NCBI GenBank assembly: GCA_964016885.1
Contig: OZ024741.1
Location: 109,058,001-109,122,000 of the forward strand
Reading direction: 5' to 3'
From: Eledone cirrhosa
Lineage: Eukaryota
Length of the DNA: 64,000 bases
The position numbers were made by a program, and so were the translations under genes. Under the pieces are notes generated by a model, which searched no databases, was not told the DNA's origin, and saw only the letters and a program-made list of their open reading frames with translations. Of this stretch, positions 7,603 to 56,410 are shown piece by piece. The stretch's first letter is position 1, and each line of letters opens with the position of its first letter.

Positions 7603-8142
7603 AAATGTTCGGTGAATCCATACATACATATATATATGTGTGCATGTATGTATATATGTATATACATACTACTGTACGTCGGTATACATATATGTATGTA
7701 CGTGTACATACTTATATTTAAGTAACAGCCGTACTAAGAGTGGGAAATGAAATATCGTTTCATTTTTTCCGTTTATCGTTTTCGGTGCACCCGGCCGATT
7801 AACCCACTCGATATGCAAATTGGGCTACTCAGCCGTTAATATGCATAAGGAAAGTATATACTTTCAGACGTTCAATCATCTGGCAGGAAGGTATACGTTG
7901 CTGACGATAGCTAATAAGCTTGAAACTAGTACAGCGTTCTTTGTCAGTGTTGAACAAACGAGCAACGATGGTTGCTAGACACTAAGGCTTAATACGGGAT
8001 GTTTGTTTACAAACACACCGAGCATTATAATAAATGTTCGGTGAATCCATATGTACATATATATATGTGTGCATGTATGTATATATATATACATACTACT
8101 GTACGTCTGTATACATATATGTATGTACGTATACATACTTAT
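7603..8142 (+). mobile_element. HHR-containing non-coding element, family A (429-nt unit, ~1.25 monomers)
   Basis: 'aaatgttcggtgaatcca' recurs 429 nt apart (~7603 and ~8032). Homologous to 9633-10250 and 55911-56410. Ends in (TA)n. Confidence 0.85.
7895..7937 (+). ncRNA. Type I hammerhead ribozyme (family A)
   Basis: acgttg-CTGACGA-tagctaataagctt-GAAA-ctag-TA-cagcgt: 6-bp stem I, stem II agct/agct, palindromic stem III, GUA cleavage triplet. Confidence 0.8.
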
Positions 8143-8288
8143 ATATATGTATATATATATATATATATATATATTACCCTAAGTATTGAGTACTTTGGTG
8201 CGTTAGGGTCCACATGGTTCCTTACATCATTTCCTTAGTTATATATATATATATATATATATATATATATATATATATATATATATAT

Positions 8289-9000
8289 GAAAGGCGTAAA
8301 ATAAGAAAATTTTAAAAATTAAAAATAAACTTACTTACTAAAATTTTCACTCCAACTAATTAGTTTCTGTAATGGGATAAAGATAGTTACGTAATGTAAC
8401 TGTCGAGAATTCATTACGTCATCAGGGAGTCTATTCTCAGCTAAGTCTCCAGGCAATGCGCGGACACTAGGGACTCATATAAAAATAATAATAATTCGGT
8501 GGATGGAACAGCTGCTAGCGAGGACTGAATTCCAAAGCACTGAAAAAGTTCACTGCCTCCGGTCAAATGGCAGATTCTAAAGAATCAATCACGTGACGCT
8601 GAGGCTAGTCGGAAGGAGTGGGGTAGTAAAATGACAAAAGCCTACTACCACTACAATAAGTTAGTAGTGGATTTGGCAGGTTTGCTCAACAAATAAATAA
8701 TTTGGAGATAAATATAGAGAATTAGTATATTTACGAACATATGCGTACAGATGTACACTAATGCTAGCAAATACATAAGTTATGCCATAGTACCTAGGTG
8801 GTTCGAAACTAATTAGTTGGAGTGAAAATTTTAGTAAGTAAGTTAATTTTTAATTTTTAAAATTTTCTTATTTTACGTCTTTCATATAATTGTTCTGCAT
8901 CCTCCTGCATTGAACTACCTAGGTATTATGACATAACTTATGTATTTGCTAGCATTAGTGTACATCTGTACGCATATGTTCGTAAATATACTAATTCTCT
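8289..9000 (-). mobile_element. HHR-containing non-coding element with interleaved inverted repeats (~540-nt inferred unit)
   Basis: 8289-8368 is inverted at 8805-8885, and 8714-8798 is inverted at 8917-9000. Flanked by TA/CT tracts. Confidence 0.75.
8349..8430 (-). ncRNA. Type I hammerhead ribozyme
   Basis: Minus strand: actcc-CTGATGA-cgtaatg...cattaca-GAAA-ctaattag-TT-ggagt. Palindromic stem III, GUU triplet. Confidence 0.8.
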
Positions 9001-9632
9001 CTCTCTCTCTCTCTATATATATATATATATATATATATATATATATATATATATATATATATATATATATATATATATATATATATATATATATATATAA
9101 GTATACATCTAGATAAGTATACATCTATAAGTCATACATCTATAAGTATACATCTAGATAATTAAGCCGTGATTGAGACATGGAATATCACACGCTAACT
9201 GATATATGACGTTTTCTGTGTGACAAGGTGAAGGACAGAGTTCATGTTCGGGGATTGTAAAGCTATGCTTGATACTTCGATTAACATAAGTGAATATTCC
9301 GGTTTTTTCCTAAAGTACAAAATGATACACAAGTTATTAATTTCTCGTTTATTTGTGGCACATTATGTGAATCTTGATGTTCAGCCAACTGTTATTTATT
9401 TATTTCGTATTTGGTTCCAGCTATGTAGTCAAGTTGTTCGATAGTCTGAATGTACGGCTGAGTGCTTAATTCACCAAGAAACACAGACATTAATATATCT
9501 CATATCGTAGGGCTTTTTCTTTATTTATATTTGTTTATCAAATTGAATGGCGACAAGTGTACGAAAATAAGGTGCCATGTAAATGTGTATATATATATAT
9601 ATATATATATATATATATATATATATATATAT

Positions 9633-10250
9633 ATAAGTATGTATACGTACATACATATATGTATACAGACGTCAGAAGTATGTATATACATACATACATG
9701 CCCACATATATATATATATATATATGTACGTATGGGTTTACCGAACATTTATTAAAATGGTCGGTTTTTTTACAAACAAACAGCCCGAATTATTAGCCGT
9801 ACAGTGTTCGGCAACCATCGTTGCCATTTTGTTCAACACTGACAAAGGAACGATGAACTAGTTTCTAGCTTATTAGCTGTCATCAGCACCGTATAACTTC
9901 CTGTCAGTTGATTGAACGTTTGAAAGTATATACTTTCCTTATGCATATTAACGGCTGAGCAGCCTAATTTGCATATCGAGTGAGTTGGTCGGCCGGGCTT
10001 ACCGAAAACGATAAATGGAAAAAATGAAATTTCATTTCTCACTCTTAGTACGGCTGTTACTTAAATATAAGTGTGTATACGTACATACATATATGTATAC
10101 AGACGTACAGTAGTATGTATATACATACATGCACATATATATATATATATATATGTACGTATGGGTTTACCGAACATTTATTAAAATGCTCGGTTTTTTT
10201 ACAAACAAACAGCCCGAATTATTAGCCGTACAGTGTTCGGCAACCATCTT
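9633..10250 (-). mobile_element. Family A element (~1.4 monomers)
   Basis: 'ccgaacattt' at 9741 and 10170 (period 429); reverse complement of the 7603 copy. Confidence 0.85.
9850..9892 (-). ncRNA. Type I hammerhead ribozyme (family A)
   Basis: acggtg-CTGATGA-cagctaataagcta-GAAA-ctag-TT-catcgt. Confidence 0.8.
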
Positions 10251-54007: not shown

Positions 54008-54290
54008 GACTACTACTACTACTACTACTACTACTACTACTACTACTACTACTACTACTACTACTACTACTACTACTACTACTACTACAACTACTACTAC
54101 TTCTGTCACTTCCACCACTACTACTACTACTACTACTACCACAACGACTACTACTGATACTACTGCCACTACCACTACCACCACCACTACTACTACTACT
54201 ACTACTACTGCCACTACCACCACTATTACTGATACTACTACTACTACTACTACTGATACTACTACCACCACCACTACTACTACTACTACA
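54008..54290. repeat. (ACT)n/(ACC)n microsatellite
   Basis: Seen directly in the sequence. Confidence 0.95.
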
Positions 54291-55059
54291 CGCGCCTATC
54301 TGACTCTATTTATTTCTATCTATTGCAGACACCCGTTGTTTTTCTGCTCTTCCTCTTGTCTGTGTAATTATGTTTTTGCGTCTATATTTCCCTTTATCTT
54401 GGTCTATCTCCATTAATTTTTCCAATATATCTCGACTTCTCCATATTTCTCGTTTTCTTGTTACGAACAAACACATGCGCGTGCGAGCATTTCAGAGTAG
54501 ACAACAGCCCATAAATGACTAATTGGTACACAGGAATACGCACCATTTAACATCTAACATCCAATAAATGAAATGAGAGGTATTATGCTACACGCAAACT
54601 CACACAATACACTATTCATAAAAAGCAACGCACAACACATTATATACTTTCCACTGTACACTACAAAACAAAAAGCGACCAACAGCTCAGAAAACATGTT
54701 ACTTAAGACACAACACATTACAGTTTCCACTGTACAATACATAAATAGTCGCGACAAACAGCTTACGAAACATGTCACTTGAATCATAACACACACGCCA
54801 CAGTATAGACTTTCCAGTGTACAATACAGAGAAACTGTAGCGGCCAACAACTCAATAACACGTCACTTGAATTACAGAAATAAATATGTTATTTCTATAC
54901 TATTCTGTCTAACAAAAGTTTTAGAGTTTTAATTTTTTTTCCTAAGCATTTTGTTATTGATTCAACCCTCTGGATAAGTCACATTGAAAATATCAAAGGC
55001 ACGAAAGTTTCTACAGACCATGCGAACAAAATGAAAAATAAAAAAGTAAGATAAACCTA

Positions 55060-55790
55060 GCACAGTAGGACACACCAACCGTATTTTAGATCGAACAGAA
55101 TGGAATATGGAGCGGAAACAATCATTACAATGAATGAGAAGTTGAGATGAATAGATATAACAGACCCGCAAGCATAGTACAGCATAATTAGCAAGAAAGA
55201 CACTGGCTCATTGAAAATTGCAATTAATTTGAAAACATCTGAGATTGACAAGATCTCCAATTCCTGGTTAAAGAACTGGGCCAGTATCCATGGGTGTACG
55301 ACAGCAACATTCAATGAAAGTATAAGCAGGCCTGTTTGTCAGCTGGATAGACGGAGAAAAACATTAATTCCGTAAATAAAAAGATTCCCAAACACTCCTA
55401 AAATAAACGACATTTAACATGCTAGCTAGTAACACCCAGAGACTTTACATTCATAGTAAACAACAGCCTAGTTTCTCGCATGGAAAACAACACATTATTA
55501 GAGGAACAGAAAAGGATTCATGTGAACTGGGCTTCTATTGAACATTTCAAAGTGAAGGAAACAATTTTTAACACGACCTGGAATGATTACCATCGGCACC
55601 AATGTAACTTTATGAAATCAGAAATTCAAATGATTAACCTCACTGTCACGCCAACATTTCACAGCATGGGACGTTACAGTCGTTACAGATGACCTTGTCA
55701 ATTTCTTGGATAAAATCAATATATACAATCATCTCCTCATCCAGCTATATGACTCTTCACAAACTCATCCTATTTTTGTAGAGATTGCTT
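55060..55790 (+). pseudogene. Highly decayed R4/Dong-like RT fragment
   Basis: 'IDKISNSWLK' resembles 'KDKIQNFWIN', and 'ENNTLLEEQK' resembles 'TNDLFPIEQK', of the 2279-3292 ORF. Confidence 0.45.
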
Positions 55791-55910
55791 CAGTAAGGAT
55801 ACACACACATATATATGTGTATATATTTATATATGTGTCTCCGTGTGTGTGTATATATGTATATATGTGTCTGTGTGTATATATATATATATATATATAT
55901 ATATATATAT

Positions 55911-56410
55911 AAACGGAAAAAATGAAACGAAATTTCATTTCCCACTCTTAGTACGGCTGTTACTTAAATATAAGTATGTACACGTACATACATATATGTA
56001 TACAGACGTACAGTAGTATGTATATATATATATATACATACATGCACACACATATATATATGTACATATGGGATTCACCGAACATTTATTATAATGCTCG
56101 GTGTGTTTGTAAACAAACATCCCGTATTAAGCCGTAGTGTCTAGCAACCATCGTTGCTCGTTTGTTCAACACTGACAAAGGAACGCTGTACTAGTTTCAA
56201 GCTTATTAGCTATCGTCAGCAACGTATACCTTCCTGCCAGATTGTTGAACGTATATACTTACCTTATGCATATTAACGGCTGAGTAGTTCAATTTGCATA
56301 TCGGGTGGGTTAATCGGCCGGGTGCACCGAAAACGATAAACGGAAAAAATAAAACGAAATTTAATTTCCCACTCTTAGTACAGCCGTACTAAGAGTGGGA
56401 AATGAAACAC
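55911..56410 (-). mobile_element. Family A element (third permutation, terminal snap-back)
   Basis: 'cggaaaaaat' at 55914 and 56341 (period 427); HHR at 56183-56225; hairpin ttcccactcttagtac-agcc-gtactaagagtgggaa at the end. Confidence 0.85.

Follow-up and report, generated by a model that had tools for sequence, protein, structure and literature searches.

Copies of the repeat in the window

The analysed window comprises 64,000 nucleotides of the Eledone cirrhosa genome (contig OZ024741.1, positions 109,058,001 to 109,122,000) and contains three copies of a 429-nt repeat unit, each of which runs beyond its own start (Table 1). A preliminary description of this DNA, based on its letters only, had reported an internal period, one hammerhead and no real ORF for each copy. 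These observations hold: the period is 427–434 nt (429 nt in copy 1, 429–434 nt in copy 2 and 427 nt in the main arm of copy 3), one type I hammerhead motif is found in each copy, and the longest stop-free frame of the circularised unit measures 75 aa. The second turn of copy 1 is 93% identical across 122 nt. Copy 2 shows 94% self-identity in its overlap and 85–86% identity to copy 1, which marks a diverged subfamily; the overlap of copy 3 spans 52 nt. The copies start at different points of the unit and their stem I sequences differ, both as described. With respect to the other ends, it is correct that the third copy stops elsewhere, i.e. at site B, but the end points are not random, since copies 1 and 2 share the same base at site A. 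Nor does the wrap-around of copy 3 extend to position 56410: the terminal segment lies outside it and is an inverted stub with a non-canonical end point.

Table 1. Features of the 429-nt family in the window. Unit coordinates refer to the reference unit.
Feature	Position	Strand	Description
Reference 429-nt unit	7603..8031	+	Basis of unit coordinates; 37% GC
Copy 1	7603..8142	+	Single arm, 1.26 units; unit position 1 (5') to site A (3'), then (TA)n
Internal site A (unit 113-115)	7707..7717	+	Fixed 3' end point, the family having two such sites; position blurred up to unit 118 by TA microhomology
Tail, site A to site B	7716..7776	+	About 56-61 nt; predicted hairpin stops just short of site B (unit 174)
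Type I hammerhead motif, copy 1	7895..7937	+	
Copy 2	9633..10248	-	Single arm, 1.43 units; unit 365 (5') to site A (3'), then (TA)n
Hammerhead motif, copy 2	9850..9892	-	Variable helix I pair is G.U; helix II closed by C.A
Copy 3, main arm	55909..56387	-	1.12 units; unit 123 (5') to site B (3'), then (TA)n
Hammerhead motif, copy 3	56183..56225	-	
Inverted stub (unit 123-150)	56380..56407	+	28 nt; head-to-head with copy 3, overlap of 8 nt

The repeat unit and its hammerhead motif

One 21-mer of the unit has 12,188 exact matches in the genome and a pattern of the hammerhead core 12,161, as opposed to none for either reversed-pattern control; the family is therefore no product of chance, and it comprises at least 12,000 units. 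No ORF is present within the unit or between the units of arrays. The architecture is not that of an LTR element either, as the 5' ends vary and the wrap between units is seamless. Unit positions 14–122 form a TA-rich, hairpin-forming, microsatellite-like part, to which all Rfam microRNA matches (below threshold) belong. For the fold of the whole unit, covariation (1 compensatory change versus 16 one-sided and 17 breaking ones) does not exceed that of slid controls. The unit is also covered by contigs from three runs whose kind is not recorded; they are uninformative on expression.

The hammerhead is of type I and has, in the motif of copy 1, a helix I of 6 bp, a helix II of 4 bp closed by U.U and a helix III of 1 bp with a palindromic loop. 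From the standard hammerhead consensus, the cleavage site presumably follows position 7931 (unit 329|330). The usual G10.1–C11.1 pair is missing and replaced by U.U (196 cases) or C.A (5). Rfam hammerhead families yield no match at the gathering score, nor at E≤10 for positions 7500–10400. Helix I varies at a single pair and remains paired; among the five commonest types, this pair is U.G (143), A-U (26), G.U (17) or unpaired (8). Divergence of the core in tail-selected loci (2.2%) equals the median of the other positions. The isolated motif folds no better than shuffled sequences (z +0.2 to -0.8); helices I and II are present in the predicted fold of the circle, with pair probabilities of 0.45–1.0. 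Any self-cleavage would probably need a dimeric fold or the help of a protein.

Insertion ends and target

The preliminary description considered the copies circularly permuted. When end points are mapped on the unit, this applies to the 5' ends, which are scattered over 144 positions among 208 without a single stop point, but not to the 3' ends: 171 out of 206 lie at site A (unit 113–118) or site B (unit 174), whose windows together make up 8% of the unit. With narrower windows, the first 89 loci give 116 out of 142. Both sites are distant from the predicted cut and about 60 nt apart. Directly 3' of 153 of the 171 canonical ends lies a (TA)n tract (background 0.11). TA is found in the 5' flank of 11 of 32 single-arm copies; a target-site duplication is unreadable within (TA)n. 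The 5' ends do not cluster at the ribozyme cut (8/208 in unit 325–340, p=0.51). A cluster in the young set (6/43; pooled 16/249, p=0.04) ranks 62nd of 429 windows and was not accepted.

About half of the loci (63/129) consist of two arms arranged head-to-head. Among inverted pairs with two canonical ends, 45 out of 46 combine one A with one B, and so do all 19 pairs in long-array loci, i.e. 64 out of 65 for both sets combined. Fixed ends had been taken beforehand as the mark of an LTR-like element. They do exist on the 3' side, but together with the one-A-one-B inverted arms they are the 'tail' footprint of Penelope-like elements (PLEs) and not an LTR-like pattern. This footprint points to a mobilising machinery that is likely of PLE type.

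Multi-lap arrays and their template

Arms exceed one unit in 98 out of 208 cases, 107 out of 142 extend across the predicted ribozyme cut, and the longest single arm among the young insertions reaches 13.8 units. The DNA query that retrieved the long arrays was itself a natural array, a choice that selects for the young subfamily. A pile-up of arm lengths at whole turns was confined to the initial 30 loci, whose length is imposed by the query, and is absent from hammerhead-selected loci. The long tandem source arrays that had been envisaged for this family do exist as arrays, but they are single insertions with A/B ends rather than separate source satellites.

At subfamily-diagnostic sites, neighbouring units disagree in 6% of comparisons, opposite arms in 8% and different loci in 40%. 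Young arrays show 0.12–0.19 substitutions per 322 nt between units (lags 1–8), 0.15 between arms and 1.19 between loci. A non-majority base is fixed across every unit in 8 of 21 loci (at most one in 500 shuffles), and array L070 alternates in an ABAB fashion, with a difference of 0.0 at lag 2 and 0.047 at lag 1. Run-around reverse transcription of a template of about 429 nt, as originally proposed, is supported by these multi-turn, internally uniform arrays and by the ABAB array; combined with the locus-specific variants, they are consistent with repeated copying of a monomeric, sometimes dimeric, template. Judged from these sequence patterns, the template is likely a circle. The haplotype is usually shared by both arms, which were thus copied from one molecule or one source; we infer that it was the same molecule. 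At L021, L030, L071, L093, L094 and L061, haplotypes are mixed, either inside one arm or across the two. Uniform arrays could also come from uniform parent arrays.

Could the template have been linear? The same PLE-driven retroposon might copy read-through transcripts of arrays, or the RT might return repeatedly by homology on a terminally redundant transcript, with the hammerhead as a mere passenger. Ends, target and inversions fit this scenario equally well, template switching does occur, as the arms of mixed haplotype demonstrate, and the hammerhead motif of the family is atypical. Moreover, hammerhead mutants of an anole PLE still insert, unprocessed RNA being the main substrate (PMC11167929), and a study on Xenopus retrozymes reports cleavage in vitro for only one of nine dimers (10.64898/2026.07.22.740005). 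However, the copying of parent arrays cannot by itself spread a new single-base variant evenly through up to 17 units and the two arms, as seen at L206, and there are at least five distinct uniform haplotypes among near-identical young arrays. The 144 different 5' positions among 208, without a single stop point, and the perfect ABAB pattern, which requires a repeating two-unit template, also speak against a linear template, which we consider unlikely.

Far less probable still is a minisatellite whose amplification and homogenisation took place in the DNA, through unequal crossover and conversion, or else resulted from assembly polishing. Satellite-like local amplification has been proposed for retrozyme arrays, an ABAB pattern can be obtained by duplicating a two-unit block, L072 contains blocks duplicated at the DNA level, and the arrays are known from the assembly. 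Yet even arrays of 20 units are bounded by A and B in (TA)n and contain the inverted junction, and inverted arms have variants in common at about 0.05% divergence. Single-unit variants also persist within arrays, which indicates that units have not been collapsed.

Candidate helper and coding parent

Seven GIY-YIG families of autonomous PLEs were sampled from the genome, and in one of them all 40 scored copies are identical over 373 nt. A young Neptune-like PLE of 4.2 kb shares the end geometry and the hammerhead subtype of the 429-nt family; the A+B rule applies to 7 out of 7 pairs of the young autonomous PLE in this genome. The Neptune-like element is a candidate helper. As coding parents, we rejected this family, the GIY-YIG family of the window and the families from Pfam PF01541 matches, none of which is homologous to the unit, as well as PLE ORFs adjoining copies, which are nested neighbours. 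The search was not exhaustive and covered the best-scoring candidates of the seven families; no coding parent was found among them, and their ends show no nucleotide homology to the unit beyond the hammerhead core.

These results bear on the idea that the unit is simply the pseudo-LTR (pLTR) at the 3' end of a coding PLE and its copies ordinary 5'-truncated insertions. A hammerhead, a tail, inversions and a (TA)n target do characterise pLTRs (PMC4209133; PMC8557442), and the parent search was limited as stated. Against it stand the wrap from unit to unit for up to 13.8 turns without an ORF between, the nested position of the PLE ORFs close to copies, and 76 free flanks without shared non-unit junction sequence, except unrecognised arms or microsatellites. 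While the unit likely originated from a pLTR, its present dependence on one is not likely, and we regard this explanation as very improbable.

A model of mobilisation

Our preferred reading, with a probability of roughly two in three, takes the unit to be a non-coding retroposon of high copy number, likely mobilised in trans by a PLE RT/GIY-YIG protein that likely goes round a small circular RNA template repeatedly. A copy with at least two hammerheads would be transcribed, and the transcript cut into monomers or dimers by the putative cleavage that the motif suggests; as in the retrozymes of mussel, coral and axolotl, ligation would then form a circle. A PLE endonuclease would cut a (TA)n tract, the target observed. 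The two DNA ends may each prime reverse transcription at an internal site, the one at B and the other at A, with about 60 nt between the sites: the end positions and the one-A-one-B rule are observed, and priming is modelled on in vitro work with the anole PLE. Each cDNA would run from less than one to about 14 laps and stop at random, in line with the observed lengths and 5' ends. Finally, two cDNAs would join head-to-head with short overlaps or a single arm would be kept, and both outcomes are seen. A more specific version, which we put forward tentatively, is that a dimeric Penelope-type RT primes both strands of the cut (TA)n on one RNA circle of 424–429 nt, at two points that lie 60 nt from each other, and produces a mirror-image array of up to 14 laps in one step.

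According to standing proposals, animal retrozymes spread via RNA circles and PLEs supply the enzyme. In the 429-nt family, both ideas are linked to footprints that can be counted, namely the A/B ends at fixed positions, the arms with one A and one B, the uniform arrays of many laps and the ABAB pattern. The family also shows that satellite-like arrays of kilobases can arise in a single insertion. If true, doubly primed copying of a circle would constitute direct genomic evidence that rolling-circle reverse transcription occurs in the germ line of an animal, and would account generally for the tandems, inversions and one-sided tails of PLEs. Since the family seems to have been active recently and a very young autonomous element occurs alongside it as candidate helper, RNA, target and protein are all defined for a test of the model.

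Comparison with known systems

Plant LTR retrozymes (PMC4918200) are described as carrying a hammerhead of type III in two LTRs, along with PBS/PPT and a 4-bp TSD, and as having a Gypsy helper. They are likewise non-autonomous and hammerhead-bearing with a circular RNA intermediate, which is proposed for the 429-nt family as well; the latter differs from them in its type I topology and its 5' ends at 144 positions of 208, which is not an LTR architecture.

Endonuclease-bearing PLEs (Neptune, Penelope/Poseidon, Naiad, Hydra) form partial tandems with an inverted 5' copy and a tail (PMC8557442, PMC3846280, PMC11167929), and their protein nicks and extends both strands, its two internal starting points delimiting the tail (PMC11167929). 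The 429-nt family shares head-to-head inverted arms, the one-arm tail, (TA)n targets, two internal start sites and a hammerhead with a short palindromic helix III. In contrast, its unit measures 0.43 kb and has no ORF, whereas an autonomous PLE contains an RT and GIY-YIG ORF between pLTRs; an arm makes up to 14 turns, and the tail is about 56–61 nt long compared to the 30–40 nt described for PLEs. Non-autonomous PLEs of Chlamys such as MRC1 (PMC8557442) are also non-coding and multicopy head-to-tail, with a microsatellite bias and a PLE acting in trans. They generally resemble the 3' end of an autonomous element and are mostly without hammerheads, while the 429-nt family has a hammerhead and no parent detected in the seven sampled families.

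The closest description is that of metazoan non-LTR retrozymes. In Cervera and de la Pena 2020 (PMC7229834) and Li, Clavereau and Pollet 2026 (10.64898/2026.07.22.740005), these are low-GC, non-coding tandem units of 150–450 bp with one type I hammerhead each, which occur as monomers to multimers, coexist with PLEs and for which a circular RNA template and mobilisation by PLEs are proposed; insertion ends are not mapped in the parts consulted. The retrozyme label of the preliminary description fits: the units are short, low-GC, tandem and without ORF, each bears a hammerhead, and PLEs are present. Compared with these retrozymes, the 429-nt family lacks G10.1–C11.1, and a homologous pLTR was not found among the seven sampled families. 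Furthermore, its link to PLEs comes from the insertion ends – A/B sites, tail and inverted arms – and not from co-occurrence or pLTR homology, and its template is deduced from haplotype sharing. By its sequence features, it represents a novel family among the non-LTR retrozymes, themselves a known kind.

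Structure and abundance of family A

Family A, a non-coding hammerhead unit of about 429 nt, is a real, abundant and recently mobile component of this 3.0-Gb, microsatellite-rich genome. With a probability of roughly 0.9, we consider it a new non-LTR retrozyme family (hammerhead-bearing non-autonomous retroelements) moved by the machinery of Penelope-like elements (PLEs). Genome-wide counts of exact patterns, which are lower bounds, gave at least 12,188 and 12,161 units, and none in controls. The internal periods of the three window copies, put at 429, 429 and 427 nt in the preliminary description, were recovered almost unchanged; each copy indeed carries a single hammerhead-like motif, and the reported lack of a real ORF holds, the longest stop-free frame of the circularised unit being 75 aa. 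The unit could also have been the end of a longer coding element, which would contradict this reading; none of 76 free flanks runs into shared coding sequence. In seven sampled GIY-YIG PLE families, similarity to the unit was confined to the hammerhead core and to copies nested inside them.

Features of the window and of two further loci
Feature	Position	Strand	Remarks
Family A, reference unit	7603-8031		
Family A, copy 1	7603-8142	+	period 429
Family A, copy 2	9633-10248	-	period 429-434
Family A, copy 3	55909-56387	-	period 427
Inverted stub of copy 3	56380-56407		28 nt
LINE-like element, broken	964-4576	-	RVT_1 domain across several frames
Second hammerhead family	27975-28568; 17670-18200; 45760 region		
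Further hammerhead-like motifs	53317-53678; 50026; 47266-47569; 28864; 41196		several within palindromic insertions
193-nt tandem repeat	30176-30969		probably SINE-like; also beside several other loci
GIY-YIG PLE 3' fragment with inverted arm	34878-35438		PF01541
tRNA match, weak	48033-48103	+	30.8 bits; probably SINE-like
RT-like and C-terminal endonuclease-like frames	61484-63980	+	no Pfam match; tentatively likened to Hydra-clade PLEs
Young Neptune-like PLE copy	L301:5497-9698 = G000:C2:216786096-216790297		
Family A locus L061	G000:C1:9968244-9972399		

Insertion ends

Arms (runs of units in one orientation) were mapped in 129 loci: the 29 best DNA hits, 58 loci found via a 21-mer of the tail (the sequence between the two end sites described below) and 40 via the hammerhead pattern, both of these sets being taken from the start of contig C1, and window copies 2 and 3. 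Before ends were counted, 12 loci were left out as duplicate entries for one location, as was L020, which is near-identical to L015; of each of two blocks duplicated within L072, only one copy was kept. The circular permutation of the copies proposed initially is only partly borne out by this mapping: 3' ends are fixed and 5' ends scattered. In unit coordinates counted from window 7603, 171 of 206 terminal 3' ends lie at site A (107-123; 74 ends) or site B (160-178; 97 ends), some 60 nt apart, and 35 elsewhere; these site windows were widened once diverged subfamilies were seen, the first, narrower ones giving 116/142. (TA)n follows 153 of the 171. The 208 5' ends are spread over 144 positions, non-uniformly (chi-square p=0.005) and most densely at unit 398-414 (window 8000-8016; 22 of 249 ends in 17 nt when the young set is pooled in), with no accepted excess at the predicted ribozyme cut (329/330). 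The peak overlies a short palindrome. Head-to-head arms occur in 63/129 loci, and the 67 inverted pairs comprise 45 A+B, one B+B (a 25-nt stub), no A+A and 21 with a non-canonical end.

A natural 7.5-unit array used as DNA query yielded young arrays (about 99%), of which 20 were fetched, a set skewed to one subfamily; its longest arm has 13.8 turns, and as many as 20 units occur in one insertion. Further inverted pairs in this set are A+B in 19/19 (in L204 the A arm is weak, 71%), whereas only a single arm is present at three loci. Hence the long tandem arrays envisaged as sources do exist, but as insertions rather than as a separate satellite.

Template

Comparison at 12 non-CpG diagnostic sites gives differences of 6% for neighbouring units, 8% for opposite arms and 40% for different loci. 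Likewise, 184 young units differ by 0.12-0.19 per 322 nt at lags 1-8, and by 0.15 between arms versus 1.19 between loci. One variant occupies 17/17 units of L206, across both arms, and another 10/10 units of L212; a non-majority base is common to all units in 8/21 loci, compared with at most 1 in 500 shuffles. In L070, two kinds of unit alternate (over 320 columns, difference 0.0 at lag 2 against 0.047 at lag 1; lengths 420/422/420/422), with full-length identity in one of two lag-2 pairs; L030 and L006 alternate partially. We infer that new variants pass a bottleneck of one, sometimes two, units and are then multiplied in a single insertion, which is what a circular template would give. The uniform multi-unit arrays and the L070 alternation agree with the run-around synthesis on a circular RNA of ~429 nt suggested earlier, but the reverse transcriptase may instead have jumped repeatedly on a terminally redundant linear RNA. 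On balance, a circular template seems probable to us. Template switching also occurs, because L021, L030, L061, L071, L093 and L094 mix haplotypes. In L061, one base is present in 6/7 units of one arm and in none of the other, possibly reflecting a switch between two templates within one insertion.

Hammerhead motif

Judged by its sequence, the motif is a putative type I hammerhead ribozyme, whose helices I, II and III comprise 6, 4 and 1 bp, the last with a palindromic loop. Stem I had been said to vary while staying paired, and it does so at a single pair, U.G in 143, A-U in 26, G.U in 17 and unpaired in 8 among the five commonest types, tallies of copies rather than independent events. Helices I and II both form in the predicted circular fold, and the non-repetitive 320 nt of the unit have a folding z of -4.7. 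Four observations count against a ribozyme: positions 10.1-11.1 are U.U in 196 and C.A in 5, an Rfam search returned no match for the motif, its fold in isolation does not differ from shuffles, and core divergence (2.2%) equals the unit median in loci picked via the tail pattern. Whole-unit covariation does not exceed slid controls.

Candidate helper

By geometry and age only, a young PLE is a candidate helper; we take it to be Neptune-like from its Zn-finger linker, rather than from a tree. Its unit measures 4,202 nt, with 373 nt identical in 40/40 scored copies. It shares with family A the U.U and palindromic helix III of its hammerhead, and has (TA)n ends and a tail of similar length. Its inverted pairs are A+B in 7/7 where both arms stop; an arm runs on in three others. 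Its two reading frames, 476 and 775 codons long when measured stop to stop, overlap, and the overlap contains a U-UUU-UUA heptamer, with constant spacing in 15/15 covering arms (L301 and 14 others), a candidate programmed -1 frameshift on sequence grounds. Optional frameshifts are described for some PLE types (PMC8557442).

Other elements in the window

The second hammerhead family, represented by an inverted pair of 290 nt, only one arm of which has a tail, and by a tandem pair of 318 nt, shows a PLE footprint like that of family A, and its TA ends sometimes host family A copies. The family at 53317 is similar to an end of a different PLE family, found in L027 and L110. The family of the GIY-YIG fragment is very abundant (18,921 first-look candidates), and a pattern search at its end found no hammerhead. 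In L040 and L032, relatives of the RT-like element lie next to family A.

Comparison with known systems

Non-LTR retrozymes are type I hammerhead repeats in tandem that are expressed as circular RNAs and for which PLEs have been proposed as helpers (PMC7229834; 10.64898/2026.07.22.740005), and circles were proposed in 2014 as templates of longer-than-unit PLE copies (PMC4209133). The family A motif is close to the canonical metazoan hammerhead described there, which works as a dimer. An inverted copy with a one-sided tail has been described for PLEs (PMC8557442, PMC3846280), the latter proposing instead that an antisense template primes itself. With purified anole PLE protein, extension of both strands starts at two internal sites and does not depend on ribozyme cleavage (PMC11167929). 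Our literature search, which covered few subscription papers, returned nothing on family A or on arms and laps that share haplotypes. The kind of retrozyme is already known; the value of family A is its clean mechanistic footprint.
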